DNA of 64,000 nucleotides from Myxococcota bacterium (GCA_049317445.1 JBMOIG010000007.1:3700-67699); one strand, 5' to 3'. Positions 12,767-64,000 are shown, counted from the stretch's first letter. Translations and numbers: made by a program. The notes: generated by a model not told the origin, from the sequence alone.

Positions 12767-12850
12767 TCGCGTGCGCTCGCCCCAATGAGATGAACCAGAC
12801 CTGCGAGGCACTGATTTGACTTGGGGGAACGCCGAAGCCAAGCTGCCCCC

Positions 12851-13867: not shown

Positions 13868-14460
13868 TGGCCACGCGGTCACGAGCTCTGCTGCAAACCG
13901 GATGCGCCGTCGCGTGGCTGTTGCTGGCAGCCGCGTGCTCCGACGGCCGGACGGCGACCGACCCGGGAACGGTGTACGCGTGCCAGACGGTGGACGACTG
14001 CCTGCAAGGGTGGGACTGCCTCTGCGGTTCTTGCCGACCTGCCGGGACCGTGTGCGACGCGGACGCAACCGCAGATGCCACGCCCGACACGACGCCGGAC
14101 GATGCCGACGCCGGTCCTGACGTGCCGGTCGGCCCCTGCAACCTGTCGACTTGGGCACCGTGTCCTGAGGGCTTCGGCTGCTACTTCGAGACCGCCACCC
14201 AGCAGACGTCGTGCCAAGCCCACGGAACACTGGGTGAAAATGCAGCGTGCGACCCGGCCCAACCAGCCGTCTGTGGCCGTCTGGGGCAGAGCGACGGCGG
14301 CCGAGCCCTTCGCTGCGACCAGGTGGACAAGAAGTGCTACCGGACCTGCGTTTGCACGGCGTTGGAGCAGCTGAAGTGCCCGACCGGACAGCAGTGCTAT
14401 TGCCTGACGGACAGTCAGCAGAAGCGTTGGCCCGACGGCGCTGGCATCTGCGCACCCTGA
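13867..14460 (+). CDS. Cys-rich lipoprotein, hypothetical
   Basis: The ATG at 13867 overlaps the upstream TGA. The lipobox is LLLAAACSDG, and about 20 Cys sit in a 197-aa protein. Confidence 0.7.
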   Translation: MATRSRALLQTGCAVAWLLLAAACSDGRTATDPGTVYACQTVDDCLQGWDCLCGSCRPAGTVCDADATADATPDTTPDDADAGPDVPVGPCNLSTWAPCPEGFGCYFETATQQTSCQAHGTLGENAACDPAQPAVCGRLGQSDGGRALRCDQVDKKCYRTCVCTALEQLKCPTGQQCYCLTDSQQKRWPDGAGICAP

Positions 14461-37003: not shown

Positions 37004-37016
37004 CAGGGAGTTCGCC

Positions 37017-37931
37017 TTGGCCGACGGTTTCCCCCGCAAGATCCGCGACGACCTGTTCGACGCAGCCTTCCTTGGCCGCGTCGAGCAGCTGGCGTTGTTG
37101 TCTCGCCGCATCGCCACCTCGGGCCAGCGGGCGATGCGGCGTTCGCGCAAGATCGGCAGCGGCATCGAGTTCGCCGACCACCGCGAGTACGCCCCCGGCG
37201 ACGACCCCCGGGCCATCGACTGGCTGCTGTATGCCCGCACCGAGCGTCTGCAACTGCGCCTGTACGAAGAGGAAGAGGACCTGAGTGTCTACTTCCTGCT
37301 CGATCGCTCGACTTCGGTGACCATGGCGGCCGACGGACAGCAGAGCCTGTTCGACCGGTCACTGCAGGTCACCGCGGCGCTGTCGTACATTTCGCTGTCG
37401 AACCTGGATCGCGTGTCGGTGGTGCCGTTCAGCGAGGGCATCGAGGCTCCGATGCGACCCCTGCGCGGGCGCAGCCAGTTCTTCCGCATCCTGCGGGTGC
37501 TGTCTGACGTCAAGCAGGGCGGTCGCACCGAAATCCATCGCTCGGTCGAGGCCTTTGCCCGACACCAGCCCCGCCGCGGTCTGGTGGTGCTGCTCAGCGA
37601 CTTCTACGACCCAGCGGGCTTGGGCGACAGCCTGCGCTACCTCGCCTTTCGCGGCTACGAGCCGATGGTGCTGCATCTGGTCGATCGGTCCCTGCTCGAC
37701 GCGCCGGTCCTCGGCGATCTGGCGCTGGTCGATTGCGAGACGGGCGACGTGCGCGAGCTGTGCCTGACGCCCTCGCTGATGGAGAATTACCGCAAGGCAT
37801 TCGACGGGTTCACGGGCGAGATCGAGCGCGCGTCGCGTGAAGCCGGCGCTCGCTGCCTGCAGGTCGATCTGGCGCTGCCGTTTGACGAGGTCGTGATGAA
37901 GGTCTTCCGCGCGGGAGGGTTCCTGGCGTGA
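37017..37931 (+). CDS. DUF58-family protein (MoxR partner)
   Basis: TTG start with an AGGGAG RBS. The DUF58 signature is GSGIEFADHREYAPGDDPRAIDW. Confidence 0.85.
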   Translation: MADGFPRKIRDDLFDAAFLGRVEQLALLSRRIATSGQRAMRRSRKIGSGIEFADHREYAPGDDPRAIDWLLYARTERLQLRLYEEEEDLSVYFLLDRSTSVTMAADGQQSLFDRSLQVTAALSYISLSNLDRVSVVPFSEGIEAPMRPLRGRSQFFRILRVLSDVKQGGRTEIHRSVEAFARHQPRRGLVVLLSDFYDPAGLGDSLRYLAFRGYEPMVLHLVDRSLLDAPVLGDLALVDCETGDVRELCLTPSLMENYRKAFDGFTGEIERASREAGARCLQVDLALPFDEVVMKVFRAGGFLA

Positions 37932-39943: not shown

Positions 39944-42747
39944 CGCGGTGGTTCTCCTCTCGTTCCGCGGGGTTGTATGCGGGTGCTCTGGCATCATTGG
40001 CCGCCGCGATCACGGCCGCCTATTGGGTGCCGTCGGAGCTGACGCACCTCGAGGCGTTGGGCATCTCTTTCGCCCACCCGCGCTGGCTTTGGCTCGCCGC
40101 ACTTGCGCTCGGGCTGCCGCTGTTGGCTCCGTTCGGCCTGACCGACCTGCCCAAGGCCCAGCGTGCGCTGCAGGTGCTGGTCCGCGCGGCTCTGGTGGTG
40201 TTGCTGGCCGTCGCCGCCGCCGGTCCCCGGTCGCTGCAAGAGGTTCCGCGCCGCGTTCAGATCCTTCATCTGGTTGATCGGTCCGAGTCGGTGCCCGACG
40301 AATTGCTGGCCGCCGCTGCCGCCTCCGCACGCAACACGAACCAGCAAGTCCTCAAGATCGAAGCGGATCAATCGCCAATCGACGCAGCGGACGAAGAGCG
40401 TCTGCCCCCCGTGACGGTGGTTGCCTTTGACGGAGAGGCCGAGCGCCTGCCTTGGCCGCCGACCGACACCGATGCCGAGGCGGGCGATGCCGTTCCGCCC
40501 CCCGTGATCGCCCGCCATCCCGCCACCGGCCGCGAGACCGACCTCGCCGGGGCGCTGAACGTGGCGCTGGGCCTGTTGGACGGCCAGAGCGTGCCCCACA
40601 TCGTGATCTGGAGCGACGGCATCGAGACGCGCGGCGACGCAAGTGAGCTCGTCGAGACGCTGAGAGCTGCCGGCGTGCACGTCCACACCCCGGCACTGCC
40701 GCCGATGCCGGTGCAGGCAGAGTTCCTGATCGAGCGATTCGACCTGCCGCCGGTAGTGCGCGCCAACGTACCGTTTCCAGTGGCCATTTCCGTACAGTCG
40801 AGTGCGATCGCCCGGGTGTCCTGCCGCGTCAAGGCGCCCGGTCAGGACCTGCCACCCGTCATCGCGCAGGTTCAGGCTGGGGCAACACGCGTCGAGCTGG
40901 GCCAGCTGCGGCTGAAGGAAGGCGGCACGGCAGAGCTGAGTGCGATGTGTGATCTCGTCGACGGCGCGGACCGCTTCGCCGCCAACAACCACCTGCGCGC
41001 ACGCGTGATCGTGCGCGCGCGCCCAAAGATTTTGTACGTCGAGGGCGTGGCCACTCAAGCGCAGCAACTTGCGCGAGCCTTGGGTGACGACTACGAGGTC
41101 GACGTCCGCGGCGGCGACGGCCTGCCACGCAACCTGCTGGCCTTGAAGCAGTTTCAGGCGATCATCCTGTCGGACGTGCCGCGCGTGACGCCGGCCGGCG
41201 TGCAGCTGCTCAGTGACAGCGACATGCGCAACCTGCACGCGTATGCGCAACAGGGCGGAGGACTGTTGGTCATCGGCGGAGAAAACAGCCTTGGTTCGGG
41301 TGGTTACCAGAACACCTATCTCGACAAGCATGTGCTGCCAGTGCAAATGGACATCGAGAGCTCAGTCGAGAACCCCACGATCGCCCTGATGCTGCTGATC
41401 GACCGGTCCGGCTCGATGTCGGGCAGCAAGATGGAGCTGGCCAAGGAAGCCGCCCGTGCCACCGCCGAGGCCATGGCCCGGGAAGACCGCATTGGCGTCG
41501 TCGCCTTCGACAGCGAGGCCCGCACCGCCGTCCGGCTGCAGCGCGCCGGCAATCGCTACCGCATCGCGACCGACATTTCCAAGCTGACGCCGAGCGGCGG
41601 CACGCACATCTACCCCGCGCTCGAGATCGCGTGGCAGGCGCTGCAGTCGACGCCCGCGAAGATCAAGCACGTGATCGTCCTGACAGACGGTCAGGCGCCG
41701 CGCGCCGGCATCGACCCCTTGGTGCGCCAGATGCGTCGCGGCGGCATCACCGTGTCCAGCGTCGGTATCGGCGCCGACGTCGACCGCAGCCTGCTGGAAA
41801 TGATCGCCGACCGGGGCGGCGGCCGCGCGTATTTCACCGACCGACCAGAGACGTTGCCTCGCATTTTCGTCAAGGAAACCAAGATCATCGCAGGCGACCC
41901 GCTGGTCGAGACCGCGATCCGTGCGCGTCGCGTGGCGGGCGGTCGGGTCGACTTGCTGCGAGGTGTGGCGATCGACAATGCCCCAGTGCTGACGGGTCTG
42001 GTGCCGTCCAAGGTCAAGCCGGGCGCCGAAGAGCTGGTGCGGGCCTCCACCGGCCAGCCACTGCTCGTGAGGTGGCGTCTGGGGTTGGGCAAGGTCACGG
42101 TGTGGACCAGCGACCTCAAGGGCCGCTGGGCCGCCGCCTGGATCGGCTGGCCGGGCTACCCGATCTTCGCGCGACAGTTGGTGCGCGACCTGCTGCAAGA
42201 GGACCTGGGGCTGACGGCGACCGTGCGGCTGGCACGCGAGCGTGATCAACTTCGCATCGCGGCCGACGCCATCGATGAAGACGACCGCTATCTGCAAGGA
42301 CTTTTTGGCACCGCAGAGGTCCAATTGCCCAACGGATCCCGCCTGCGGCTGCCCCTGCCCGAGGTCGCTGCGGGGCGCTACGAGACCACCGTGCCGCTGT
42401 CGGATCTTGGCCCCTACGACGTCCTGGTCCAGCTGCGTGCAAGCCCCGACCAGCCCGTTCTCGCGACCGGCCGCGCCACCGCCGTCCACCCCTACCCCGA
42501 CGAGTACCGTCTGCCCGACCCTGCCGGTTCCAGCCTGGAAGCGCTGGTCAAGGGCACCGGTGGCCGCATGGGCAGCGGGCCGACCGACTGGGTCGACGAT
42601 GGCGGCGCCACCCACCGCGGCTGGCAATGGCTGTGGCCCGATCTGGTGCGTTGGGGGCTGCTGCTGCTGTTGCTGGACGTGGGACTGCGGCGGGTGCGTC
42701 TGGGCCGTGCGCCGTCGATCAAGTGGCATACCTTGCGGCGCAAGTAA
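39940..42747 (+). CDS. VWA-domain membrane protein (large BatB-like)
   Basis: ATGA overlap with the upstream gene; an AGGAGG RBS. It has an N-terminal transmembrane helix, the MIDAS motif LLIDRSGSMSG, and a C-terminal transmembrane helix (WGLLLLLLDVGL). Confidence 0.85.
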   Translation: MTRWFSSRSAGLYAGALASLAAAITAAYWVPSELTHLEALGISFAHPRWLWLAALALGLPLLAPFGLTDLPKAQRALQVLVRAALVVLLAVAAAGPRSLQEVPRRVQILHLVDRSESVPDELLAAAAASARNTNQQVLKIEADQSPIDAADEERLPPVTVVAFDGEAERLPWPPTDTDAEAGDAVPPPVIARHPATGRETDLAGALNVALGLLDGQSVPHIVIWSDGIETRGDASELVETLRAAGVHVHTPALPPMPVQAEFLIERFDLPPVVRANVPFPVAISVQSSAIARVSCRVKAPGQDLPPVIAQVQAGATRVELGQLRLKEGGTAELSAMCDLVDGADRFAANNHLRARVIVRARPKILYVEGVATQAQQLARALGDDYEVDVRGGDGLPRNLLALKQFQAIILSDVPRVTPAGVQLLSDSDMRNLHAYAQQGGGLLVIGGENSLGSGGYQNTYLDKHVLPVQMDIESSVENPTIALMLLIDRSGSMSGSKMELAKEAARATAEAMAREDRIGVVAFDSEARTAVRLQRAGNRYRIATDISKLTPSGGTHIYPALEIAWQALQSTPAKIKHVIVLTDGQAPRAGIDPLVRQMRRGGITVSSVGIGADVDRSLLEMIADRGGGRAYFTDRPETLPRIFVKETKIIAGDPLVETAIRARRVAGGRVDLLRGVAIDNAPVLTGLVPSKVKPGAEELVRASTGQPLLVRWRLGLGKVTVWTSDLKGRWAAAWIGWPGYPIFARQLVRDLLQEDLGLTATVRLARERDQLRIAADAIDEDDRYLQGLFGTAEVQLPNGSRLRLPLPEVAAGRYETTVPLSDLGPYDVLVQLRASPDQPVLATGRATAVHPYPDEYRLPDPAGSSLEALVKGTGGRMGSGPTDWVDDGGATHRGWQWLWPDLVRWGLLLLLLDVGLRRVRLGRAPSIKWHTLRRK

Positions 42748-42756
42748 CCGCACTGC

Positions 42757-44739
42757 CTAAGCAATCGCGATCAACACCTGCTCCAGATGCTTGGCCTCGT
42801 CGCGCAGCCGGGCCGCCTCTTCGAACGCCAGCTCGCCGGCCGCCGCCTTCATCTTCTTGCGCACGTCGGCAATTTGCTTCTCGAGGTCGGCCTTGCTGCG
42901 ACCACGCGCCAGCGCCTCGGCATCGCGCAGCGGCCCCGCTGCCAGCGCCGCCTTGGACTGCGTGTGCGCCTTGACGATGGTGCGCGGCGTGATGCCGTTG
43001 GCCAGGTTGTGCGCCTGCTGGGCCGTGCGCCGTCGCTCGGTCTCGGCGATCGCCTGCGCCATCGAGTCGGTCATTCGGTCGGCGTACAGGATCACCCGTC
43101 CGTTCACGTTGCGCGCCGCCCGTCCGATCGTCTGGATCAGCGACCGCCGTGAGCGCAGGAAGCCCTCCTTGTCGGCGTCCAGAATCGCGACCAGTGAAAC
43201 CTCGGGAAGATCAAGACCTTCCCGCAACAGGTTGATGCCGACCAGCACGTCGAAGTCACCTGCACGCAGGCCCCGAATCAGCTCGATGCGCTCCAAGGTC
43301 TCGACGTCCGAGTGCATGTAGCGCACCCGCACCCCAAGCTCTTCGTAGTATTCCGTCAGGTGCTCGGCCATCCGTTTGGTCAGCGTGGTCACCAAGACCC
43401 GCTCGCCAGCCTCCGCACAAATTCGAATTTCCCCTAACAGATCATCGACCTGACTGCGCACAGGGCGCACCTCGACCTCGGGATCCACTAGCCCCGTCGG
43501 CCGCACCAGCTGTTCGACGATCACGCCGTGGGTCTGGCGAAGCTCCTCGTCGCCGGGTGTCGCAGAAACGTAGATGATCTGGGGAGTTCGCTGCATGAAC
43601 TCCTCGATCCTCAGCGGGCGGTTGTCCAGCGCGCTCGGCAAACGGAACCCGTGCTCGACCAAGGTCTCCTTGCGAGACCGGTCCGCCCGAAACATCCCGC
43701 CGACCTGTCCGACGGTGACGTGCGACTCATCGATGAAGGTAATGAAATCCCGTGGGAAGTAGTCGACCAGCGTGGGGGGAGGCTCGCCCGACAGCCGCCC
43801 CGACAGGTGCCGTGCGTAGTTCTCGATGCCGTTGGTGAAGCCCCGACTCTCCAGATTCTCCAGGTCGAACATCGTGCGCTGCTCAAGCCGTTGCGCCTCC
43901 AGCAACTTGCCTTGATCACGAAGTTCTTGCAGCCGCGACCGCAGCTCGACCGCGATGGTCTCCCGCGCCGTGATCAACTGGTCCGCAGGCGTTGCGTAGT
44001 GCGAATTCGGGTAGATGTTGGTGTTCTCCAGCGACGCCAGCACGATCCCTCGCAGCGGGTCGATCGTCTCCAGCCGCTCGATCTCGTCGCCCCACAGCGT
44101 GATCCGGATGGCCCGGTCGTCGGCGTAGGCCGGTTGGATCTCGATCACGTCGCCGCGCACCCGAAACGCCCCGCGCGCCAGCTCGAAGTCGTTGCGCTCG
44201 TACTGCACGTCCACCAGCTTGCGCAGCAGCGTATCCCTTCGAATCTCTTGACCAACCGCCAGCGGCACTCGCATCCCGACATACGACTCCGCCGCGCCGA
44301 TACCGTAGATGCACGACACCGAAGCGACGATCACGACGTCGCGCCGCTCGAGCAACGCATAGGTCGCCGCGTGCCGCATCCGGTCGATCTCGTCGTTGAT
44401 CATCGAGTCCTTCTCGATGTAGGTGTCCGTCGACGGAACGTAAGCCTCCGGCTGGTAGTAGTCGTAATAACTAACGAAATACTCGACGGCGTTGTTCGGA
44501 AACAGCCCCTTCAGCTCCGCATGGAGCTGGGCCGCCAGAATCTTGTTCGGGGCGAGCACCAGCGCCGGCCGCTGCAACTCGGCGATCACGCACGCCATCG
44601 TGAAGGTCTTGCCAGAGCCGGTGACGCCGAGCAGGACCTGCGCTGCCTCACCTTGCTGTAATCCAAGGGAAAGGCTGGCGATCGCCGCCTCCTGGTCCCC
44701 GGCAGGACGGTGGGGCGACACGAGTTCGAACTTCGGCAT
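42757..44739 (-). CDS. uvrB: Excinuclease ABC subunit B
   Basis: The start is the internal ATG 44739 (MPKFELVSP...) with a GGAGGAG RBS. Walker A is GVTGSGKT; UvrB helicase motifs and the C-terminal UvrC-interacting helix ([13 protein letters not shown]) are present. Confidence 0.95.
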
Positions 44740-48895: not shown

Positions 48896-49375
48896 TCAGA
48901 CGTCTTGCAGGGTGGCGATCAGTTCAGCGACGTTGCGGCCGGAGCGGGCATCTACGAAATCGGGCGCGACCTGCGCAAGGGGTTCCAGCACGAAACGCCG
49001 CAGCGAAAGCCGAGGATGCGGCAGTTGCAGCCGGGGCAGGTCGACGCGCAGGCCGTCCCAATCGAGCAGGTCCAGATCCAGAGGGCGCGCGCCGTGGTGG
49101 CCCTCTCTCCGGCGGTCCCGGCCAAACGCCTGCTCAATCCGCTGACAGGCGGCCAACGCGAGCAGTGGAGTCAGCTCCGTCCACCCTCGCCCCACTGCAT
49201 TGGCAAACAGCCCCCCGGACGCCCCCTCGGCGGGCGGCGAGCGCACAAGGTCGCTCAACTCCGCGTCCCGCAATCCAAGTTCCTGACATGCAGCCGCCCA
49301 GCCCAACTGCACCGAAGCCGCGGCGTCGGCAACGTTGCTGCCCAAGGCAAGCAGGATCTGGGGCATGGGAAGCAC
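48896..49375 (-). CDS. folK: 2-amino-4-hydroxy-6-hydroxymethyldihydropteridine pyrophosphokinase (HPPK)
   Basis: Motifs: ILLALGSN, IEQAFGRDRRREGHHGARPLDLDLL, LQLPHPRL, RRFVLEPL. Confidence 0.85.
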   Translation of the reverse strand: MLPMPQILLALGSNVADAAASVQLGWAAACQELGLRDAELSDLVRSPPAEGASGGLFANAVGRGWTELTPLLALAACQRIEQAFGRDRRREGHHGARPLDLDLLDWDGLRVDLPRLQLPHPRLSLRRFVLEPLAQVAPDFVDARSGRNVAELIATLQDV

Positions 49376-49500
49376 TCGCGGCAGAGAGGGGCACGACGGT
49401 GCGGTGGATTCCGCAATGCTGCCGCCTTGATCGGGAAGCGTTCGGATCGCATGCTACCGTGCACCGTTTCGTCGGGCCAGCGGCCCGCATCAGGAGACCG

Positions 49501-50520
49501 ATGCTGTCCAGGTTCGTTCCCCAGCGCCGCAGTCGCCCAGTCCTCTGCCTTGCGCTCGCTTTGCTGGCGTTGATCACGGGCTGCAAGCACGCCGACTCGA
49601 CTCGCGCGGCCGCAGAAACTGCCGGTCAAGGTCGCGAGGTTCCGTACGTCGCAGAGCCCAACGCGGCCACCGCCACTGCCGCCCCCGCCGCCGCGCCGGC
49701 GCCCGCCACGCTGCCACGTGGCGTCGACGCCAAGGACCTGCCGGAGCGTGATCGTCAGACCCTCTTCGACATCCTGACCGAGCAGTTCGACCCCTGCGGC
49801 AAGCCGCGGACGATGGCCGAGTCGCTTCAGGCCGGCGACTGCGCGATCGCCCCCAAGCTGGCGGCGCTGATCGTGCGGCTGCTGCAGGAAGGCCAGACCA
49901 AGAAGGAAGTGATCCGCAGCCTGCTGGAGGAGGTGGAGCGTCTGAACACGGTCGCAACCTTCCAGCTCGCTGGCGCCCCCTTGCTGGGCCCCGAACAGGC
50001 GGTCGTGCCGGTGGTGCTGTTCTCCGACTTTGAGTGTCCTTACTGCCGCAAGGTCGCCGCACCGCTTGAGTTGTTGCAGAAGCACTACGGTATTACCCTG
50101 TATTACAAGAGCTTTCCGCTTCGACAGAACCACGTCCGTGCGGAGCCCGCTGCCCGCGCCGCTTGGGCCGCGCATCGGCAAGGCAAGTTCTGGCAGATGC
50201 ATGACGCACTGTTCACGGCCAAGCGGCTCGAGGACGCCGACTTCAAGCGCTTCGCAACCAAGATCGGCCTGGACGCCAAACGGTTCCAAGCCGACTTCGC
50301 CAGTCCAGAGGCGATCGCCGCCATCGACGCCGACATCGCCGAGGGCAGCGCTGCCGGTGTGCAGGGTACGCCGACGTTTTTCGTGAACGGGCGGCTGACC
50401 GACGGGCTGGACAAGCTGCAGGAGGCGATCCGCGAGGCCCTGACCGACGCTGGTCGCCCGGTACCGGAGGCGCTGTCGTCGGACGCGCTCGAGGCGACCG
50501 GCATCCAGAGGGCTCCATGA
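49501..50520 (+). CDS. DsbA-family thiol:disulfide oxidoreductase lipoprotein
   Basis: The lipobox is LITGC and the thioredoxin-fold active site is FSDFECPYC. A C-terminal cis-Pro region (GTPTFFVNG) is present. Confidence 0.85.
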   Translation: MLSRFVPQRRSRPVLCLALALLALITGCKHADSTRAAAETAGQGREVPYVAEPNAATATAAPAAAPAPATLPRGVDAKDLPERDRQTLFDILTEQFDPCGKPRTMAESLQAGDCAIAPKLAALIVRLLQEGQTKKEVIRSLLEEVERLNTVATFQLAGAPLLGPEQAVVPVVLFSDFECPYCRKVAAPLELLQKHYGITLYYKSFPLRQNHVRAEPAARAAWAAHRQGKFWQMHDALFTAKRLEDADFKRFATKIGLDAKRFQADFASPEAIAAIDADIAEGSAAGVQGTPTFFVNGRLTDGLDKLQEAIREALTDAGRPVPEALSSDALEATGIQRAP

Positions 50521-55330: not shown

Positions 55331-55996
55331 ATGTTTCACTCCATCGCAGAGATTTTTGAAGAAGGCGGCTGGGGAATGTGGCCCATCCTCGGGCACCTCG
55401 TCTTCATTCTGGCCATCATGTTCGAGCGCATCTTCGTGCTCTACATCCGGTCGAGTGTGAAGAAGGAGGAGTTCATCAAGCTCCTGCAAGTGCCGATCCT
55501 CAAGGGCGACCTGAATCGCGTGCTGAAGGTCTGCTCGACCTATCAGTACCCGCTGGCCCGCATCGTTCACGCTGGCGTCCTCAAGGTGAAGCGCTCGGAC
55601 GAAGAAGTTCAAGCGGCCATGGACGAGGCCTATCTGCGCGAGATCCCGCAGATCGAGAAGCGCGTCGACTACCTGAACTTGCTCGGCAACACGGCCACCC
55701 TGGCTGGTCTGCTCGGCACGATCTCGGGCCTGATCAATACGTTCTCGGCCATCGGCCGTCCGGACGTCGATCCGTCGCAGCGCTCCACCCTGCTCTCGCA
55801 GGGCATCTCGGAGGCCATGAACTGCACGGCGTTCGGTCTCGCGACCGGCATCGTCGGCGTGCTTTCGTTCGCGGTCCTGACCTCGAAGGCCAAGGAAATA
55901 AAGGCGGACATCGACGAGGGCACGGTTCGCGTGCTCAACCTGATCGTCGCCAACCGCAACAAGATGGGCGACATCAAGGATGACGCGGCCGCGTGA
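55331..55996 (+). CDS. MotA/TolQ/ExbB-family proton-channel protein
   Basis: It has three transmembrane helices in the MotA/TolQ/ExbB arrangement and the conserved C-terminal helix pair. Confidence 0.85.
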   Translation: MFHSIAEIFEEGGWGMWPILGHLVFILAIMFERIFVLYIRSSVKKEEFIKLLQVPILKGDLNRVLKVCSTYQYPLARIVHAGVLKVKRSDEEVQAAMDEAYLREIPQIEKRVDYLNLLGNTATLAGLLGTISGLINTFSAIGRPDVDPSQRSTLLSQGISEAMNCTAFGLATGIVGVLSFAVLTSKAKEIKADIDEGTVRVLNLIVANRNKMGDIKDDAAA

Positions 55997-56240
55997 TGCG
56001 GTGCGTTGCTCCACGGCGGGCTTCGGCCTGACGAGGGAGTGGGTGTCTGACCGACTCGTCTGCTCGACGTGTCCTGCGGCCCGGAGCCCTCCCTGAAATA
56101 CGGGATGGCTCCGGGGCCGCGGGCTGAGCAGCAGTACTCGCCCGGTGGGGCTGACCGGCAGCGGCCGGCGAGCTCCGTGAGACCGTCCCGGCTTCCCCGG
56201 AACGGTGATCAACGCTCGACGAACGGACAGGAGAGAGACG

Positions 56241-56849
56241 ATGGGTGGTGGTTCTTCAGGAAAAGGCGGCGTAGCCGACGCGACACTGAACGTCGTGCCC
56301 TTCATCGATCTGCTGGCGTGCACGATCTGCTTCCTGCTGATTTCGGCGGTGTGGACCCAGATGTCCCGCGTCGACGTCGACCAGGCCCTTCCCAAGGCGA
56401 GCAAGACTCCTCCCAAGGAGCAGCCCAAGAAGGAACCGAAGATCAACGTGGCCATCACGCCCACGGGATACTTGGTCAACCTGTTCAACCTCGAGACCAA
56501 GCCCGAGCTTGCACAGCCGAAGCGCATCCCGACCGATGGCGAGTTCCGACTCTGCCGCGGCAAGGGTTCGGTGACGTCGTGCCAGGGCCAAATCGAGGTC
56601 TTCAAGAAGTACAACCGCCCCGAGCTGCGGAAGACCCTGGCCGGCTTCATGAAAGAGGCTGGCTTGGGCGACAAGGTCAAGGTGATGGTCGTGGCATCTG
56701 ACAAGGTGCAGTACCTGCACTTGATCGGCACCCTCGACGCGATCCTCGGCTCCTGCATCGACGATGCGGCCAAGAAGAACTGCCTGAGAAACCCCGCCGT
56801 CGGCGATCAGAATCTGCTGAAAGCCGAAGGGTTCACGGACTTCAACTAG
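56241..56849 (+). CDS. ExbD/TolR-family protein 1
   Basis: A GGAGAGAG RBS. The single transmembrane helix LNVVPFIDLLACTICFLLI carries the conserved Asp. It has a long periplasmic domain. Confidence 0.8.
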   Translation: MGGGSSGKGGVADATLNVVPFIDLLACTICFLLISAVWTQMSRVDVDQALPKASKTPPKEQPKKEPKINVAITPTGYLVNLFNLETKPELAQPKRIPTDGEFRLCRGKGSVTSCQGQIEVFKKYNRPELRKTLAGFMKEAGLGDKVKVMVVASDKVQYLHLIGTLDAILGSCIDDAAKKNCLRNPAVGDQNLLKAEGFTDFN

Positions 56850-56920
56850 CCCTTGGCGGCCCTATCTGGCGCTGACGAACCGATCCGCCCCCAACGGCGG
56901 GCCCTAGACAGAGGAACGAG

Positions 56921-57520
56921 ATGGCTGTCCACCACCCCGGATCACGAGCCGGCCACGGCATTGCCCTCAAGACCATCCAGAAGACGGTCAAGACGGGCGG
57001 AAGCAAGGCTATCTTTGCGACGCTGAACGTCGTGCCCATGATCGACCTCTTCATCATGCTCGTCATCTTTCTGATCCAGTCGTTCAGCGCGGCCGGCGAA
57101 CTGATGCTCGTTAACCCGAACGTCGCCATGCCCAAGGCCTCGTCGAAGGCCGAACTCGAGCGAGCGCCCATGGTCGCCCTGACCCGCGGCGACGGCAGCA
57201 CCCTTGGCGAAATGCTCTTTGAGAACAAGCGCATCATGAGCCTGGGCGACGTCAACGAGGTCAAGTACCCCAGCTGGGACATCAAGCCCCTGGCCGAGGT
57301 GTTGAAGAGTTCTTGGAAGTTCCAGCAGAACCCGAAGAACCCTCAGAAGGTTCGCGAAAACCGCAAGGTCATCATCCAATCCGACCGCACCGTGCCCTTC
57401 CAGGTCATCAAGATGGTCATGGCCACGTGTGGTCGTAATGAATACCGCGAGCCCAACTTCGCGATCATGGTCGACGGACGTGGCGACGAAGGGTTGGCTG
57501 GACCCGCGGCGCCTCCGTAG
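56921..57520 (+). CDS. ExbD/TolR-family protein 2
   Basis: The transmembrane helix LNVVPMIDLFIMLVIFLI carries the conserved Asp. Confidence 0.8.
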   Translation: MAVHHPGSRAGHGIALKTIQKTVKTGGSKAIFATLNVVPMIDLFIMLVIFLIQSFSAAGELMLVNPNVAMPKASSKAELERAPMVALTRGDGSTLGEMLFENKRIMSLGDVNEVKYPSWDIKPLAEVLKSSWKFQQNPKNPQKVRENRKVIIQSDRTVPFQVIKMVMATCGRNEYREPNFAIMVDGRGDEGLAGPAAPP

Positions 57521-57587
57521 TTCGATGACGCGCGGTCGCGCCCTGCTCCCCCCGCATCCTCGCTGCACGTGACCAAGGGGCTTTCCC

Positions 57588-58367
57588 ATGCCCGGCTTTC
57601 TAGCCCACTCGGCCGATCCCTTCTTCCCCACAGCCCGCCTTCGATCTCCGATCAGCGTGCGCGTTGCCATCAGCCTGCTGGTGGGCATCGTCTCGCTGCT
57701 GGCCGCCGCTTCCGAGGGCTGGGCGAGACCTGCCTCTCGCGTGTTCCTGAACGGCGTGCTCTCACCCGTATGGTTCAACGACGGCGACAGCTTCGCGGTT
57801 TTGGCGGGGCCGTATGCCGGCACCAAGGCTCGGCTTGCCGGCTACAACACGCTCGAGAGCTTCGGCAACGTGCACAAGTGGGGCGACTGGAAGGCTTCTG
57901 AGCTGTACGTCAACGCCAAGATGGCCACGCTGAACGCTCGAAGAGGGACCTGGCGCTGCACCTCGGACCTCCAACGTGACGGCTACGGCCGCATCCTCTG
58001 GGACTGCCCGGACCTTGCCGTCGACCAGATCCGCAAGGGCTTGGCGCACGCAATGACCGTGACCAAACTGCCGTCGCCCGACCGGTACATCGCCGCGCAG
58101 AAAGCCGCGATCGCCGAGAAGCGGGGCATGTGGGCCAAGGGCGTGCCGAAGTACATCCTGACGTCAGCGCACTCGAACGACGAGGGCTACGACGGCACGA
58201 CGTACAACCGCACCGTTTCGACCGAAGACGGCCACTCCGAGAAGTGGATCCACCTGGACATGTACAAGACGTGCCAGTGGGTCTGCCATGAGGCTGGGGC
58301 CTGTCACCTGTACGTCCCGTTCTCCCGCCGCTACGGCCAGGGAGCGGCGACGTGCTTGCACGATTGA
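57588..58367 (+). CDS. Staphylococcal-nuclease-like (SNase/thermonuclease) secreted nuclease
   Basis: An N-terminal signal anchor is followed by SNc motifs: FNDGDSF, RLAGYNTLES, RDGYGRILWD. Confidence 0.75.
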   Translation: MPGFLAHSADPFFPTARLRSPISVRVAISLLVGIVSLLAAASEGWARPASRVFLNGVLSPVWFNDGDSFAVLAGPYAGTKARLAGYNTLESFGNVHKWGDWKASELYVNAKMATLNARRGTWRCTSDLQRDGYGRILWDCPDLAVDQIRKGLAHAMTVTKLPSPDRYIAAQKAAIAEKRGMWAKGVPKYILTSAHSNDEGYDGTTYNRTVSTEDGHSEKWIHLDMYKTCQWVCHEAGACHLYVPFSRRYGQGAATCLHD

Positions 58368-58408
58368 TCTGTCGCGCCGAGCGGACCTTCCGCCCATCTG
58401 AGGAGCGC

Positions 58409-59677
58409 ATGCTGCCCTCTCGAACCCTACCTTCTCGCCCGGTCCTCGGAGTCGCCTGCGTCGCTGGCTTGCTCGCGGTGGCGATGAGCGGCTGCTACGA
58501 CGTTCCTGTGACCAAGGACGGCGTCTTGCCTGTGCTTGGCTACGAGGCCGACAACCAGACCTGCAGCGACGGCATCGACAACGATCAGGACGGGATGATC
58601 GACTGCGATGACGTCGATTGCCTGCTGCTGTCGACCTTCTGCGGTGAGTACGTGCCGGCCGTTCCGACCTTCGAGGTCGAGAACACCGTCGAGCTCTGCG
58701 CCGACTTTCAGGACAACGACGACGACGGCCAGTTCGACTGCGGCGACAAGAAGTGTCAGAACCTGGCCGAGGCGTGCTGCCTTCGGGAATTCACCAACGA
58801 ACTCTGCAGCGACGGCAAGGACAACGACGGCAACGGCTACACCGACTGCAAGGACTACGGCTGCAGCAAGGGCATGTTCGTGACGGTGTGCACCGAGGAC
58901 TCCGACGTCGACTCGGCCGCGTGCACGGACGGCAAGGACAACGACGGCGACGGCAAGACCGATTGCGCCGATACGGGCTGCGACACCGTCCCCGCGTGCT
59001 TGCCGGCCAGCGAGCCCGAGGACACGCTGGCCAAGTGTCAGGACGGGATCGACAACGACGGCAACAAGTACATCGATTGCTTGGACTTCTCGTGCAGCAA
59101 GTCCAAGGACGCCGCCGTTGCCGAGTACTGCGCCACCGCGCCTGCTCTGGCCGAAGACACCGTGGCCCTGTGCAGCGACGGGCTCGACAACGACAAGAAC
59201 GGCTACATCGACTGCAACGACTTCTCCTGCAGCTCCAAGGGCACCCAAGAGGCGATGGACTACTGCGTCTCGATTGGCGAGAACACGGTGGCCAAGTGCT
59301 CGGACGGCATCGACAACGACAACAACGGCTTTGTCGACTGCGGCGACTACTCGTGCTCGCAGGCCGACGACTCCGCCGTGGTCAAGTACTGCGCGTCTGT
59401 CCTCGAAGTGACGTTCGAGCGTTGCAGCGACGACATCGACAACGATGGCAACGGCTACACCGACTGCGAAGACTACTCGTGCCGCAACTCGACCGACCTC
59501 TCGGTCAAGCAGGCGTGTCAGGAGAGCTTGGGCGACGGCACCGCGAAGTGCAGCGACGGCATCGACAACGACAAAGACGGATACGTCGACTGCGACGACT
59601 GGGATTGCAACTGGAACCCCGCCGTCGACATCTGCAAGAACAAGACGACCGGCAAGCCCCGGGTCTGCGGGTTCTAG
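58409..59677 (+). CDS. Lipoprotein built from about 10 tandem Cys/Asp-rich repeats (C-x-D-G-x-D-N-D-x-D-G-x-x-D-C-x-D-x-x-C)
   Basis: A GAGGAG RBS; the lipobox is AMSGC. The repeat can be read directly in the translation. It is acidic, with a DxDxDG calcium-loop-like core bracketed by Cys. Confidence 0.8.
   Translation: MLPSRTLPSRPVLGVACVAGLLAVAMSGCYDVPVTKDGVLPVLGYEADNQTCSDGIDNDQDGMIDCDDVDCLLLSTFCGEYVPAVPTFEVENTVELCADFQDNDDDGQFDCGDKKCQNLAEACCLREFTNELCSDGKDNDGNGYTDCKDYGCSKGMFVTVCTEDSDVDSAACTDGKDNDGDGKTDCADTGCDTVPACLPASEPEDTLAKCQDGIDNDGNKYIDCLDFSCSKSKDAAVAEYCATAPALAEDTVALCSDGLDNDKNGYIDCNDFSCSSKGTQEAMDYCVSIGENTVAKCSDGIDNDNNGFVDCGDYSCSQADDSAVVKYCASVLEVTFERCSDDIDNDGNGYTDCEDYSCRNSTDLSVKQACQESLGDGTAKCSDGIDNDKDGYVDCDDWDCNWNPAVDICKNKTTGKPRVCGF
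58562..59634 (+). repeat. Intragenic tandem repeat array (about 96-110 nt units) encoding Cys/Asp modules
   Basis: There are about 10 iterations of ...CSDGIDNDxDGxxDCxDxxC... at protein level, with GACAACGAC / GACGGC recurring at DNA level. Confidence 0.8.
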
Positions 59678-59697
59678 CAACGGAAAGTGAGGTCATC

Positions 59698-61362
59698 ATG
59701 AGGACGGCAGCCCTATTTGCGATGGCGGCCCTGGTAGTTGGGAGTTCGTTCGTGACGGCCGCGTGGGCCCAGCCCGCAAAGCCGGGTGCTCCCGCGCCCG
59801 CAGCGGAGGTCGCCCCCGCGGCACCGGCGGCTCAGACGCCAGCGGCACCCGTTCCCGCGGCGAATACCGGCGCGAAGGAGACGAACTGCGGCGATCGCAA
59901 GGACGACGACGGCGACGGCATGGTCGACTGCGCGGACGCCGACTGCAAAGGTGACATGCTGTGCAAGGTCGGGTCGGGACCCGAAGACGACGACGCGAAG
60001 TGCAGCGACTGGTTCGACAACGACGGCGACGGCTTCGTGGACTGCGACGACAGCGACTGCGACCAGGCCAAGCCTTGCCGCGGCTCGTGGCAGGGACCTC
60101 TGGAGAGCGGCGGCGGCGCGGGTGGCGCGAACAGCGTGCCGGACGACGTGCCTGAGCTGCGCGACGGCATGACCGTCGAGGACCTGATCGGCAAGGGCAG
60201 CGACAAGGACGGCGAGCGCAACGACGAGGTTTGCTCCGACGGCATCGACAACGACAACGACGGCAAGATCGACTGCGCCGACTTCGGCTGCCGGTTTGAC
60301 CCGGAAGTGACCGTCTGCCGTGGCAATCCGGGCATGCGCTTCTCGGTCGTCGCCGGCATCGAAGGCGCGTACGACATGGAGAAGAAGCAGGCCGACACCC
60401 GCTTCACCAAGCTGCAATTGCGGTCGTTTGGCCCAATCCTGCAGATCCCGAACTCGTTCTACCTCGTCAGCATGCGGGCCGAGCGGACACCGCGCCTGAC
60501 GTTTGCGATGTTTCAGGTCCCTCTGGGCACCAGCGGCCACTTCCTCAACCTGAACAGCGGCGGCGGCGGCCTGTCCAGCGGCTTGATCGTGTCGACGTCG
60601 AAGCAGCTGCTGGTCGAGCCCGCGTATTACCTCTACAACGCTTTCGAGCAGGGCAACGGCGCCGCAGTCGAAGTGTCCGGTCCGTTGGGCCACTCCGGCA
60701 AGCTCGTGTACCGGGCATTTGCGGCGGGCGGCTCGGGCCGGTCGACGGGCAACGTCGGCGGTCGCTACTTCACCTACGGCAACGAGAATTACACTTATGG
60801 CGTCGGCGGTCAGGTCGGCCTGAACGTATTCGGCACCGTCAGCCGCTTCGACTCACCGTTCCTCTACACCAGCGTGCCGCTGACCTGGGGCCTGACGCTG
60901 GGCGCCAAGTACGACCAGCGGGCGCAGGAGCGCTATCCCGCCTTCAACCTGAACAACGTGTTCCGCTACAAGAGGGTCGTCGCGACGGCTGAGGTGTACG
61001 GCAAGTACGCACTCGACTTCGAGCAGAAGTCGATCATCCCCGGCGCCAACCAGTTGGCGTACAACGTGCAGGTCGGCGTGCTGGCGATCCCCAAGGTGCT
61101 GCTGCTGGCGGCCGACTACGGCGCGTATGTGGCGGGCAAGCGTCTGGCAGGACCGGACAAACTGGAGACCGACCTGCGCAAGCAGCTGGACGAGTTCCAG
61201 TATCGCGCTGCCGCCCACGTGTACGTCTGGCGCAACATCGGTGTCGTCTCGCTGCTGTATCGCTTCCGCGAGGTTGCCGGCGCCCTGAACAGCTCGGGCG
61301 TGACGGTGGGTCCGAAGACGAATGAGCAGGAAGTGCTCGTCTCGACGCAGTACCGGTTCTAG
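59698..61362 (+). CDS. Putative outer-membrane beta-barrel protein with three N-terminal Cys/Asp repeats of the same family
   Basis: A GTGAGG RBS; signal peptide MRTAALFAMAALVVGSSFVTAAWA. Repeats NCGDRKDDDGDGMVDCADADC, CSDWFDNDGDGFVDCDDSDC and CSDGIDNDNDGKIDCADFGC are present. The C-terminal 350 aa show alternating beta-strand patterning and end in ...VSTQYRF (terminal Phe). Confidence 0.75.
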   Translation: MRTAALFAMAALVVGSSFVTAAWAQPAKPGAPAPAAEVAPAAPAAQTPAAPVPAANTGAKETNCGDRKDDDGDGMVDCADADCKGDMLCKVGSGPEDDDAKCSDWFDNDGDGFVDCDDSDCDQAKPCRGSWQGPLESGGGAGGANSVPDDVPELRDGMTVEDLIGKGSDKDGERNDEVCSDGIDNDNDGKIDCADFGCRFDPEVTVCRGNPGMRFSVVAGIEGAYDMEKKQADTRFTKLQLRSFGPILQIPNSFYLVSMRAERTPRLTFAMFQVPLGTSGHFLNLNSGGGGLSSGLIVSTSKQLLVEPAYYLYNAFEQGNGAAVEVSGPLGHSGKLVYRAFAAGGSGRSTGNVGGRYFTYGNENYTYGVGGQVGLNVFGTVSRFDSPFLYTSVPLTWGLTLGAKYDQRAQERYPAFNLNNVFRYKRVVATAEVYGKYALDFEQKSIIPGANQLAYNVQVGVLAIPKVLLLAADYGAYVAGKRLAGPDKLETDLRKQLDEFQYRAAAHVYVWRNIGVVSLLYRFREVAGALNSSGVTVGPKTNEQEVLVSTQYRF

Positions 61363-61392
61363 CTCCGGGTCATCCAGAAGCTGCAGGATTAC

Positions 61393-61446
61393 GATTGCTT
61401 GCGCGGCGCCTGACGAATTCGTCACGGCGCCGCGCGGCGTTTTGCT
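61393..61446 (+). terminator. Rho-independent terminator / long hairpin
   Basis: A roughly 19-bp GC stem (CTTGCGCGGCGCC...GGCGCCGCGCGG) encloses the palindrome TGACGAATTCGTCA and is followed by CGTTTTGCTTC. Confidence 0.7.
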
Positions 61447-61500
61447 TCAGGCAGCGATCATCTCGTGCCGGCGGCCCTCTTCGCCCCGGGGCGGGTGGGC

Positions 61501-64000
61501 ATGGCGTGGAATTGGCAAGGGCGGGTGTGGGCGCCGGCAGCGGTGGCGGTGACGGCAGGTGCTGGCGTTGGTCTGCACGGTGGCCTTCCGCCGATGACGA
61601 CTGTGGCGCTGGCTGCAACCTGCGTTGCGATGGCGACTTGGGGGGTGCGTCGGCGGCTGCGGGGGCCACTGCTGCTCGCTGCGTGGGTCGCTCTGGGCCT
61701 TGTCTCCGCCGTGCGGGCCGAGCAGACGCTGACGCCCGGCGTCCTGCCGCCGCTGGATCTGCCACGGCCGGGGCTGGAAGCGCCGCTGCAGCTGCTGGAG
61801 GCGGCATCTGAGCCGGAGTGGAGTCCGGTCGGTCATCGCTTCACCGCAAAGTGGACCGCGCGCTGCCGGCCTGAACCCTTGCTGCGACGACTGGCGTGCG
61901 AAGCGAGAAGCGGCCTTGTGCGTGTCGACGTCGTCGGGCGAGACGTGCGGGTGCAGTTGGGAGATCGCGTGAGGGTGCGGGCGTTTACCACGCCTCCCCC
62001 CGCATTTCGCAACCCCGGGGCTTGGGATGCCCGAGAGTCGTGGACGCGTGCGGGCCTGGTGGCGGGCGTGCGCGTGCGGCGGGTGGGTGAGATCAGCTTC
62101 GAGGAACGGCCTCTGGCGGAACCCTTTGGTTGGGCAAGACATCCTCTGGGGGCTTTGCTGCACGTCATCGGGCGTTGGCGCAGGCACCTGAGCGACGCGC
62201 TGACGACCACGGTGCCGGGGCGCGCCGGGCAGACGTTTGCCGCCCTTGCGCTGGGGGACAAGGGGTCCGTCGACGAGCCGCTGCAAGCGTGGCTGCGGGC
62301 CACGGGCACGGCCCACGTGATGGCGGTGTCGGGCAGTCATCTCGCGCTGGTTGTGTGGATGGTGCGGGCGTTGTTGAAGTTCCTGGCCACGCGACTTGCG
62401 CGAGGGCTGTTTCGGCGGTTTCCGCGTGAACAACTGCTGGCGGTGCCGAGCCTGATGGCGACTTGGGGCTACGCGCTGCTGACGGGGGCGGCACCAAGCA
62501 CGCTGCGCGCGGCGGTCATGGCGACGGCGCTGGTGTTGGGGCGGGCGAGCGGACGGCAGCCGGGGCTGGGCGAGTCGCTGGGGTTGGCGGCGGTGGTGCT
62601 GATGCTGGTCGACCCCGTGGCGGTGGCGGATGTGGGGCTGCTGCTGTCGATTCTGGGCGTGCTGGGTCTGGCGTGGGCGGGTTGGGGGCAGGACCAGCCC
62701 CAAGAGGGCGGTTGGCGCACGCGGCTGAAGCATCATGGCGTGGTGTTCCTGAAGACGTGCGTGGCGCCATCGGCGTCGACGGCTCCGGCGACCCTGACCG
62801 TCTTTGGCGCGCTGCCGCTGGTTGGACCGCTGGCGAACGGTCTTGCCGTGCCCTACGCGGGGTTTCTGCTGCCGGTGGCGCTTGCGGCGATGATCCTGTC
62901 CGCGCTGGGGGCGTGGCTGGGTCCTGTGCGGGCGTGGATTGCGCCGGCGTGCGAGTTGGCGTTGTGGCCACTGGAGAAACTGGTAGCGTCTCCCAAGGCG
63001 TGGTGGCCGGTGTGGTCCGCGAGTGGGGCTCTGGCGCTGGTGGCCGGGCTGACGGTGCCGGCGGTCGTTGCGGCGTGGTGGCACGGGGGTCGATGGCGTG
63101 CAGTGGCGGCGGTCGCGCTGGTTGCGACGGCGGCGACATGGGCGGGATCTGTGTGGTTGCAGCGCGTTCCGCAGGGCACGGCTCGGCTGTCGTTCCTGGA
63201 CGTGGGACACGGCGACAGCACGTTGATCGAGCTGCCGGACGGGTCGAATCTGCTGGTCGACGGCGGTGGCGAGGTGGCGGACGACGGGCGAATTGGCGCG
63301 CAGGCGGTGGTGCCGTTCCTGAAGCATCACGGCATCCGGCGGATCGACCGCATGGTGCTGACCCATGGACACCCGGACCACGAAAACGGCCTGCTGGCGG
63401 TGGCGCGGGTCCTGCCTGTGGGCGAGCTGTGGTGGAACGGGCAGATCCCAGGCGGCGCCGAACATCAGGCACTGCTTGCCGAATTGACGCGACAGGGGAC
63501 GAGGTGGCGCGACTTTTCGGGGACGGGGGCGCAGCGGTCGTTCACTTGGGACGGCGTGCAAGTCCGCGTCCTGTGGCCTTTTCCGGTAGATGCCCCGTAC
63601 TCTGCCGCGCATGACTTCAACGACAACTCGCTGGTGCTGGAGGTCTCGACGGCAGGTGGGCGCGTGCTCCTCGCAGGCGACATCGAGGCGCCGGCGGAGG
63701 CGGCGCTGGCCAAGGCGCGGATGCTGCGGCCGGTCGATGTGCTGAAGGTGCCCCATCACGGCAGCCGCACCTCGAGCACACCGCCGCTGTTGGAGGGGGT
63801 GCGGCCGGGCCTGGCGGTGGTCGGTGCCCGTCCGTGGGGGCAACTGCCCTTTCCGCATCCGGAAGTGCGCGACCGCTACGCCCGCTACGGCATCCCGCTG
63901 TGGCCGACGACGGAGGGATGGGTCGAGGTGCTGGTCGGTCCCCAAGGGGCCAGCGCGAAACAGGAGGGGCACTCGTGGTCGTCCCAGCCTGGTCCACCCA
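61501..64000 (+). CDS. comEC: DNA internalization competence protein ComEC/Rec2 (competence domain + C-terminal metallo-beta-lactamase domain), C-terminus beyond the window
   Basis: Translated by hand. There are multiple transmembrane helices and the competence motif GTAHVMAVSGSHLALV. The MBL domain reads FLDVGHGDSTLIELPDGSNLLVDGGG ... MVLTHGHPDHENGL ... KVPHHGS. No stop occurs before 64000, so it is absent from the ORF track. GTG 61465 or 61495 are alternative starts. The 841-aa antisense ORF 61447..63972 is rejected. Confidence 0.9.
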   Translation, partial: MAWNWQGRVWAPAAVAVTAGAGVGLHGGLPPMTTVALAATCVAMATWGVRRRLRGPLLLAAWVALGLVSAVRAEQTLTPGVLPPLDLPRPGLEAPLQLLEAASEPEWSPVGHRFTAKWTARCRPEPLLRRLACEARSGLVRVDVVGRDVRVQLGDRVRVRAFTTPPPAFRNPGAWDARESWTRAGLVAGVRVRRVGEISFEERPLAEPFGWARHPLGALLHVIGRWRRHLSDALTTTVPGRAGQTFAALALGDKGSVDEPLQAWLRATGTAHVMAVSGSHLALVVWMVRALLKFLATRLARGLFRRFPREQLLAVPSLMATWGYALLTGAAPSTLRAAVMATALVLGRASGRQPGLGESLGLAAVVLMLVDPVAVADVGLLLSILGVLGLAWAGWGQDQPQEGGWRTRLKHHGVVFLKTCVAPSASTAPATLTVFGALPLVGPLANGLAVPYAGFLLPVALAAMILSALGAWLGPVRAWIAPACELALWPLEKLVASPKAWWPVWSASGALALVAGLTVPAVVAAWWHGGRWRAVAAVALVATAATWAGSVWLQRVPQGTARLSFLDVGHGDSTLIELPDGSNLLVDGGGEVADDGRIGAQAVVPFLKHHGIRRIDRMVLTHGHPDHENGLLAVARVLPVGELWWNGQIPGGAEHQALLAELTRQGTRWRDFSGTGAQRSFTWDGVQVRVLWPFPVDAPYSAAHDFNDNSLVLEVSTAGGRVLLAGDIEAPAEAALAKARMLRPVDVLKVPHHGSRTSSTPPLLEGVRPGLAVVGARPWGQLPFPHPEVRDRYARYGIPLWPTTEGWVEVLVGPQGASAKQEGHSWSSQPGPP

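Follow-up and report, generated by a model that had tools for sequence, protein, structure and literature searches.

Do the seven genes that close a 64,000-nucleotide stretch of a Myxococcota bacterium genome (GCA_049317445.1 JBMOIG010000007.1:3700-67699; hereafter the window) form one machine, or are they neighbours with separate histories? Gene calls from GC3 frame analysis and translations place an exbB-like gene, two exbD genes, genes for a nuclease, a lipoprotein and an outer-membrane barrel protein, and comEC on the plus strand from position 55331 to the window end, with intergenic gaps of 244, 71, 67, 41, 20 and 138 nt in 5' to 3' order. A sequence-only reading had described seven co-directional genes with none on the opposite strand, and these calls, together with the family matches given below, agree with it. 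A minus-strand ORF (61447-63972, 841 aa) was rejected as an R/Q/P-rich antisense artefact. Co-directionality alone is unremarkable here, as four genes upstream of the block share the same direction.

The product of the exbB-like gene (55331-55996, 221 aa) is a MotA/TolQ/ExbB proton-channel subunit by its match to Pfam PF01618 (MotA_ExbB; E = 6e-24, 84.6 bits against a gathering cutoff of 22.9). The products of exbD1 (56241-56849, 202 aa; an alternative GTG start at 56205 gives the longest ORF) and exbD2 (56921-57520, 199 aa) match PF02472 (E = 1e-10 and 1e-12; 42.0 and 48.7 bits; cutoff 25.4), and their translations carry the transmembrane Asp in VPFIDLL and VPMIDLF, respectively, as expected from the earlier assignment of one MotA/TolQ/ExbB and two ExbD/TolR subunits. 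The solved sequences closest to the window ExbB are TolQ (1.4e-7) and then ExbB (2.4e-5). The NCBIfam equivalog cutoffs are missed by far, both for the first subunit (tolQ, 60 bits versus 221; exbB, 36 versus 206) and for the ExbD proteins (TolR, 31 and 28 bits versus 127; ExbD likewise). No gene for a cognate output protein (TonB, TolA or GltG-like) was found in the block or in approximately 25 kb upstream, and u390 had no Pfam match; BLAST of it against the genes that follow distant ExbB-ExbD-ExbD triplets gave nothing at E up to 1. In these distant triplets the gene order persists beside different neighbours, and the window ExbD1 and ExbD2 are orthologous to their first and second ExbD, respectively. 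The three genes, module 1 of the block, encode a very strongly conserved proton-driven stator triplet.

Downstream lies the nuclease gene (57588-58367, 259 aa), whose product consists of a signal peptide (residues ~1-46), an SNase domain (~50-184) and a Cys/His beta domain (185-259) that is specific to this family and found nowhere else. The fold is that of the SNase OB type: although the match to Pfam PF00565 falls below the gathering score (15.2 bits versus 21; E = 0.031), SNase was the only match when a profile of the nuclease family was compared with the PDB (best E = 0.005). Residues D67, R82, N87, E90 and R135 do not vary among 29 family sequences and have the same spacing as in SNase; we take them, from comparison with the SNase sequence and a partial hhalign alignment, to be the equivalents of SNase D21, R35, D40, E43 and R87. 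Judged from this alignment the catalytic set is intact, with Asn (N87) at the position of the Ca2+ ligand D40. The SNase-like assignment of the sequence-only reading therefore stands, while its signal anchor is less likely: the signal peptide is probably cleavable, at GWA|RP, and is not obviously an anchor. Its analogy with EndA/NucA-type processing fails on fold, as EndA and NucA are beta-beta-alpha-Me enzymes (DNA/RNA non-specific endonucleases) and the window nuclease is SNase/OB. In Sandaracinaceae loci, a second SNase-like lipoprotein adjoins the three genes that begin with this nuclease.

The lipoprotein (58409-59677, 422 aa) has the lipobox AMSG|C29 followed by nine acidic double-disulfide repeats of the form CSDGIDNDxDGxxDCxDxxC...C, and contains 17% Asp and 40 Cys residues. 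It has no Pfam match even at E = 10, and is matched in nine copies by the NCBIfam entry NF033662, 'acidic double-disulfide repeat' (247.6 bits; cutoff 41), which also matches the barrel protein in three copies (89.8 bits). The repeat is thus shared by the two proteins, as had been proposed, but it is already catalogued and hence not novel; NF033662 has no assigned function, and we found no paper on it. In every repeat the segment DNDxDGxxDCxD fits EF-loop positions 1, 3, 5, 6 (G), 8 (hydrophobic) and 12. Extracellular Excalibur modules carry the motif DxDxDGxxCE, and the repeats resemble both this module and EF-hand-type DxDxDG loops by motif. Comparison with the Pfam EF-hand profiles gave no significant match (E = 5-9), and Excalibur and TSP_3 were not matched. 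This motif resemblance suggests that the repeats may bind Ca2+.

The barrel gene (59698-61362, 554 aa) encodes a protein with a signal peptide (residues 1-24), three repeats (64-207), a 16-stranded barrel (214-554) and the C-terminal residues YRF. A long, conserved L3-like loop (288-321) lies between strands 5 and 6, so that the barrel, internal L3-type loop, signal peptide and C-terminal aromatic residue of a 16-stranded porin are all present. There was no porin match in NCBIfam or in Pfam, in the latter even at E = 10. The earlier suggestion of an outer-membrane receptor gives way to that of a porin with an L3-like loop rather than a plugged TonB-dependent receptor. A TonB-dependent transporter, characterized by a 22-stranded barrel, an N-terminal plug and a TonB box, was considered and rejected. 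A pore of this kind would pass nucleotides but not polymers, which is a difficulty for any scheme that brings the nuclease and its substrate together at the porin.

The last gene, comEC/rec2 (61501-64000), is cut by the window end after more than 833 codons. Its identification as ComEC in the sequence-only reading is borne out by TIGR00361 (ComEC_Rec2; 243 bits versus a cutoff of 190) and by Pfam matches to PF03772 (Competence; 3e-47), PF00753 (metallo-beta-lactamase; 2.5e-12) and PF13567 (DUF4131; 1e-9). A terminator had been placed before this gene at 61393-61446, and a GC-rich hairpin is indeed present at 61397-61438 (dG = -37.8 kcal/mol; z = -3.9; none of 200 shuffled sequences folds as well). 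It is followed by a U tract, GUUUUGCUUC, and the whole element (61397-61450, plus strand) is a candidate intrinsic terminator of the upstream transcript. A simple consensus terminator scan did not call it; a similar hairpin with a T tail also lies just 3' of the barrel gene in loci L003, L017, L023, L072, L080 and L044. As nothing resembling a terminator occurs in the 67-nt spacer that leads from exbD2 to the nuclease gene (z = +0.6), the motor genes may be co-transcribed with the nuclease, lipoprotein and barrel genes (hereafter the trio). The trio itself is a tight three-gene operon: across loci, its genes frequently lie -12 to +9 nt apart, and stop and start codons often overlap.

Whether these neighbours stay together was examined across 80 loci of uncultured Myxococcota and Bradymonadia. 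The order nuclease, lipoprotein, porin was kept in every assessable locus (lipoprotein 74/74; barrel 64/64), whereas exbBDD was upstream of the trio in 29 of 71 and comEC downstream in 24 of 55, leaving 31 loci with the trio and no comEC. Both sides could be assessed in 53 loci, of which 23 had both flanks, 30 had neither and none was mixed. In a tree of nuclease plus barrel sequences, all loci with ExbB fall into a single nested clade, in which the motor adjoins the trio in 29/29 loci and the full exbBDD-trio-comEC order is invariant (23/23 assessable on both sides, and L090 too). ExbB is 82-95% identical across this clade and at most 56% identical beyond it, unlike the trio proteins, whose identity is 54-75% within the clade and beyond it alike. 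Within the clade, dsbA-like, gmk, gltX, thiolase, TPR, YfhO and ArsA genes are just as syntenic as exbBDD and comEC. In the other 30 loci the flanks are variable and mostly unique, and independent public gene calls concur. As a counterpoint to modularity, the clade keeps the exbBDD-trio-comEC arrangement without exception despite substantial divergence (ComEC identity of 33-50%).

Only a single Myxococcota lineage, uncultured and largely aquatic, has these neighbours side by side. The conservation expected of a joint apparatus is found for the trio alone, and the trio, a conserved and undescribed envelope cassette, is the real unit of the block. We consider it reasonably probable that the block is made up of three modules that evolved independently, the motor, the trio and ComEC, which are lineage-specific neighbours; the fallback of the sequence-only reading, two unrelated neighbours, comes close to this but is one unit short. 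The trio probably couples Ca2+-dependent degradation of nucleic acids to a porin of its own. Ca2+ is the obligatory cofactor of SNase-type enzymes, although the Asn at the D40 position counts against this proposal. In the mechanism that we propose, the nuclease would be exported by Sec, and the acidic repeats of the lipoprotein and porin would bind Ca2+, the SNase cofactor, and may dock the enzyme at the porin, giving a degradation site associated with the outer membrane. Nucleic acid would be degraded there and the small products would pass through the dedicated porin, which could serve nucleic-acid or phosphate scavenging or the clearance of envelope DNA. ComEC would act as an inner-membrane DNA channel, transcribed separately behind the terminator-like hairpin.

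The headline of the sequence-only reading was that all seven genes form one apparatus, in which the ExbB/ExbD motor energises DNA capture or translocation at the repeat-bearing barrel, the nuclease processes the DNA and ComEC imports it. The short gaps, shared direction, invariant arrangement in the clade and absence of a terminator from the exbD2-nuclease spacer are all in keeping with this, and there is a precedent in Pseudomonas: ExbB is tabulated beside ComA as a P. stutzeri competence protein, with consecutive P. aeruginosa counterparts, PA2983 and PA2984, respectively (PMC7660920). The synteny data nonetheless weaken it, as only the trio is conserved across lineages and housekeeping genes are equally syntenic within the clade. 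A single DNA-uptake machine is unsupported because the three units adjoin in only one lineage when about 80 related genomes are compared, and we regard it as quite improbable. No pil, com or glt genes were found within approximately 25 kb upstream of the block, and pilus/secretin, ComEA, ComF and DprA genes, which would mark a competence cluster, were absent from the 36 kb read upstream. PADLOC models of anti-phage defence did not match the motor or the trio, and ComEC gave generic MBL-domain matches only.

Partial recruitment would require less: in the clade only, the motor and trio could work together as one operon, for example in proton-motive-force-dependent gating or turnover of a porin-lipoprotein complex via a periplasm-spanning partner, with ComEC unrelated. 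The unstructured 67-nt spacer, the unbroken motor-trio adjacency in the clade and a hairpin that lies 3' rather than 5' of the trio would all fit. We nevertheless think this unlikely, given that in every other lineage the trio functions with no exbBDD beside it, that different genes follow the related triplets elsewhere and that the block contains no TonB-like gene; moreover, the extreme conservation of ExbB beside a faster-evolving trio suggests a housekeeping role independent of it. A similarly doubtful prospect is that the trio is primarily a structural or ion-handling envelope complex, in which the porin and a Ca2+-binding lipoprotein buffer Ca2+ or tether the outer membrane and the nuclease is an accessory passenger or a barrier to foreign DNA instead of an enzyme for nutrient scavenging. 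No partner, however, is linked more tightly than the nuclease, which occurs in every locus with stop and start codons that often overlap; its catalytic residues are invariant, it has its private domain, and a second SNase-like gene adjoins the trio in some lineages. The boldest reading, which we rate as a long shot, makes the trio an unrecognised outer-membrane machine for nucleic-acid capture and processing, with Ca2+-loaded acidic repeats holding DNA by Ca2+ bridges and presenting it to a docked SNase-type enzyme at the dedicated porin, that was recruited in the window lineage between a proton-motive-force stator and ComEC. If true, the resulting assembly would take up DNA, or feed on it, by an energised route other than the pilus/secretin pathway.

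Several known systems come close to parts of the block. The sequence-only reading knew of no described combination of this kind and overlooked the comA(comEC)-exbB neighbourhood of Pseudomonas (PMC7660920), which likewise unites a ComEC and an ExbB homologue; in the window, however, the order is reversed, the two are set apart by the three trio genes as well as a terminator-like hairpin, and their linkage is confined to one clade. In layout only, the motor is like M. xanthus aglR-aglQ-aglS (245, 162 and 194 aa) and its similarly arranged paralogue MXAN_3003-3005 (PMC3169522), as one MotA/TolQ/ExbB gene precedes two ExbD/TolR genes, but no glt genes lie near it in the window or approximately 25 kb upstream. 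It also shares the transmembrane Asp of ExbB-ExbD and TolQ-TolR stators, in both ExbD proteins, yet has no TonB, TolA or GltG partner in the block. The closest known system to the nuclease is the SNase/thermonuclease family, including B. subtilis YncB-type lipoprotein nucleases. OprP/OprO, DcaP, chitoporin and OmpF/PorB-type porins have the same 16 strands, L3-type constriction loop and C-terminal aromatic residue as the window barrel, although solved porins are just 7-12% identical to it. By analogy with solved 16-stranded porins, its N-terminal extension would be periplasmic, as in OmpM1 and DcaP; that of the window barrel consists of acidic double-disulfide repeats and is neither an SLH domain nor a coiled coil.

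The block between 55331 and 64000 is best read as three modules: an ExbB/ExbD stator, a trio of genes encoding a nuclease, a lipoprotein and an outer-membrane barrel protein, and comEC. As the window is high in G+C (62–71%), genes were called using GC at codon positions together with translations, and all seven genes of the sequence-only reading were found, on the + strand. exbB (55331–55996; Pfam MotA_ExbB), exbD1 (56241–56849; Pfam ExbD; longest ORF from GTG 56205) and exbD2 (56921–57520; Pfam ExbD) are followed by the nuclease (57588–58367), lipoprotein (58409–59677) and barrel-protein (59698–61362) genes and by comEC, which runs from 61501 past the end of the window (ComEC/Rec2, TIGR00361; 243 bits versus a cutoff of 190). 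Since Pfam and NCBIfam matched MotA_ExbB, both ExbD proteins and ComEC/Rec2, and the transmembrane Asp is present in both ExbD proteins, the earlier observation was confirmed. The first module is a stator of one channel and two ExbD subunits, and the third is an ordinary comEC. A minus-strand ORF opposite comEC (61447–63972; 841 aa) was rejected as an Arg/Gln/Pro-rich antisense artefact.

The trio is a conserved, so far undescribed entity. Searches with the nuclease and barrel families (E ≤ 0.001, counted as 90%-identity cluster representatives) returned 666 and 637 homologues, respectively; of the sources that carry a taxon name, nearly all were MAGs of uncultured Myxococcota, 'Deltaproteobacteria' or Bradymonadia. 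Eighty genome loci were sampled by taking the nuclease gene plus 10 kb to either side; the window proteins were placed on them by tblastn, and genes were also called (codon log-odds) and clustered independently. The lipoprotein gene followed the nuclease gene in 74/74 assessable loci and the barrel gene did so in 64/64, while exbB-exbD-exbD lay upstream of the trio in 29/71 and comEC downstream in 24/55. In the 53 loci where both flanks could be assessed, exbBDD and comEC were both present in 23, both absent in 30 and never found singly. The 30 loci with neither carry the MAG labels Polyangiales, Sandaracinaceae, Polyangiaceae, Myxococcaceae and others, include one 9.3-Mb metagenome-assembled chromosome, and have variable, mostly unique flanks. 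Shorter loci from Bradymonadia and Nannocystaceae have the trio as well. A neighbour-joining tree built on the nuclease and barrel proteins put all ExbB-bearing loci in one clade nested among the rest; trio proteins diverge to a similar degree within and beyond this clade, ExbB identity is 82–95% across it and ≤56% beyond, and outside it neighbouring genes of the trio frequently overlap or are separated by ≤10 nt. One locus, L090, had been taken for a clade member without comEC, which tblastn refuted by locating a + strand comEC (47% identity) under minus-strand calls of the public pipeline at 12624–13977, themselves antisense artefacts. Antisense ORFs over comEC, in L090 as in the window, look like a recurring mis-annotation hazard in this high-GC lineage. 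MAG records for loci L003, L004, L005, L026 and L076 bear the title 'uncultured Enterobacteriaceae bacterium' or 'Klebsiella pneumoniae' despite a Myxococcota-type block, and these titles look like taxonomic mislabels in public assemblies.

These distributions bear on the proposal that the seven genes form one PMF-driven apparatus for DNA uptake or processing, which, if true, would be a new competence mechanism. We consider it improbable, as 30 of 53 loci keep the trio with neither putative partner. The invariance of the exbBDD-trio-comEC arrangement within the clade would favour a single system; however, the conserved synteny there equally spans DsbA-like, gmk, gltX, thiolase, TPR, YfhO-like and ArsA-like genes, and conserved adjacency in this clade is therefore functionally uninformative. 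The single system is also favoured, at low probability, by a precedent in Pseudomonas, where exbB lies beside a comEC homologue and ExbB is listed among competence proteins (PMC7660920), and by the finding that no terminator stands ahead of the nuclease gene, the 67-nt exbD2-nuclease spacer having no unusual structure. Motor genes and trio may be co-transcribed in the window's lineage. On balance the comparative evidence argues against the single apparatus and for three modules, sparing an experimental detour.

A terminator-like structure before comEC had been predicted. At 61397–61450, in the gap that separates comEC from the barrel gene, a hairpin (-37.8 kcal/mol, z -3.9) was found with GUUUUGCUUC after it; several relatives have a comparable hairpin and T feature 3' of the barrel gene. 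A scan for consensus promoters and terminators found no promoter and did not pick up this hairpin. At 244 nt, the GC-rich exbB-exbD1 spacer (55997–56240) is uncommonly long, and it contains a strong hairpin at ~56073–56130 (z -2.5 for the whole spacer against shuffles, of which 2/200 fold as well); some related loci have spacers of 250–560 nt in this position. Rfam detected no RNA family anywhere in the window, this spacer included.

Genes in the 36 kb upstream code for a sigma-54 activator, an SLT transglycosylase, a MoxR/DUF58/BatA-VWA operon, UvrB, a CoA transferase, an amidohydrolase, a DsbA-like protein, Gmk, GltX, a 390-aa unknown protein and a divergently oriented TPR protein; none of them is a gene for pili, competence, gliding or TonB. 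The MoxR AAA+/DUF58/BatA-VWA/VWA operon (35990–42744), a Bat-like aerotolerance-type cluster upstream of uvrB (42760–44739, - strand), is unrelated to the exbBDD-trio-comEC finding. The DsbA-like thioredoxin gene (49165–50520, probable start near 49561) belongs to the clade's syntenic block and lies upstream of genes for three exported proteins that are very rich in disulfides, with 40, 12 and at least 4 Cys; since it is unlinked to the trio outside the clade, this nearness is probably coincidental.

The nuclease scored 15.2 bits against Pfam SNase, below the threshold of 21, and hhalign of its profile with SNase aligned the C-terminal half only (probability 35%), so the assignment required fold comparison. 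The AlphaFold model was confident (pLDDT 90.9), and staphylococcal nuclease was the sole PDB match to a profile of 29 family sequences. Residues D67, R82, N87, E90 and R135, which we take to be equivalent to D21, R35, D40, E43 and R87 of SNase, are invariant across these 29 sequences, and the earlier description of a staphylococcal-nuclease-like enzyme stands. An additional domain, rich in beta structure and containing four invariant Cys as well as several His, spans residues 185–259; fold comparison gave no structural match for it, and Pfam, NCBIfam and PADLOC no match. Among 1.84 billion representative proteins this domain had 137 matches at E ≤ 0.001, nearly all of the same architecture, and no informative new architecture emerged. 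About half of the family, including some ExbB-bearing clade members, carries ~60–110 extra residues within the Cys/His domain, inserted at the place that lies between C233 and C239 in the window protein, which is of the short form (alignment A1). A second, classical SNase-like lipoprotein gene (DGDT...RLIGVNAPE) adjoins the trio in Sandaracinaceae-type loci (L057, L066, L071, L074 and L081; cluster c20; for example L071 14552–15271). A defence-system reading of the nuclease was unsupported, PADLOC having no match for the trio.

The Cys/Asp repeat shared by the lipoprotein and barrel protein, thought to be novel, is already catalogued as NCBIfam NF033662, 'acidic double-disulfide repeat', with nine copies in the former (248 bits) and three in the latter (90 bits); a literature search for the name found no paper. 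Part of each unit (CSDGIDNDxDGxxDCxDxxC...C) fits the EF-hand loop consensus. This motif makes Ca2+ binding plausible, but Pfam EF-hand matches were not significant. The lipoprotein has no other match in Pfam, NCBIfam or PADLOC, and the barrel domain has none in these databases. The predicted outer-membrane barrel proved to be 16-stranded and porin-like, with strands 5 and 6 joined by a strongly conserved loop resembling the porin L3 loop; it is not a TonB-dependent receptor.

The surviving interest is a new, widespread nuclease-lipoprotein-porin cassette, compact and strictly conserved in uncultured, largely aquatic Myxococcota and Bradymonadia. Its proteins have generic names at most: they are a Ca2+-dependent-type nuclease, and a porin and lipoprotein sharing a catalogued, unstudied Ca2+-loop-like repeat. 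From the Ca2+ need of SNase-type enzymes, the Ca2+-loop-like repeats and the periplasmic N-terminus of solved 16-stranded porins, we infer a model in which the lipoprotein and porin extension would enrich Ca2+ and serve as a dock for the nuclease at the outer membrane, where nucleic acid would be broken down and small products would pass through the dedicated porin. If the cassette scavenges nucleic acid or phosphorus, it would bear on the feeding of abundant lake and sediment bacteria, in groups that include known predators, and the NF033662 repeat and private nuclease domain would gain a function.

More distant ExbB-ExbD-ExbD triplets retain the order of their genes and frequently occur as a pair of divergent copies; loci L082–L086 have two, transcribed divergently head to head (for example L084 6339–10827). 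Neither a nuclease gene nor comEC lies beside them in the three lineages examined, where an unannotated 320–360-aa membrane-anchored protein is encoded 3' of the queried triplet, followed by Fur in 2/3. The gene layout of the stator module resembles that of Myxococcus xanthus AglRQS, which, with its paralogue, likewise combines one channel with two ExbD proteins (PMC3169522).
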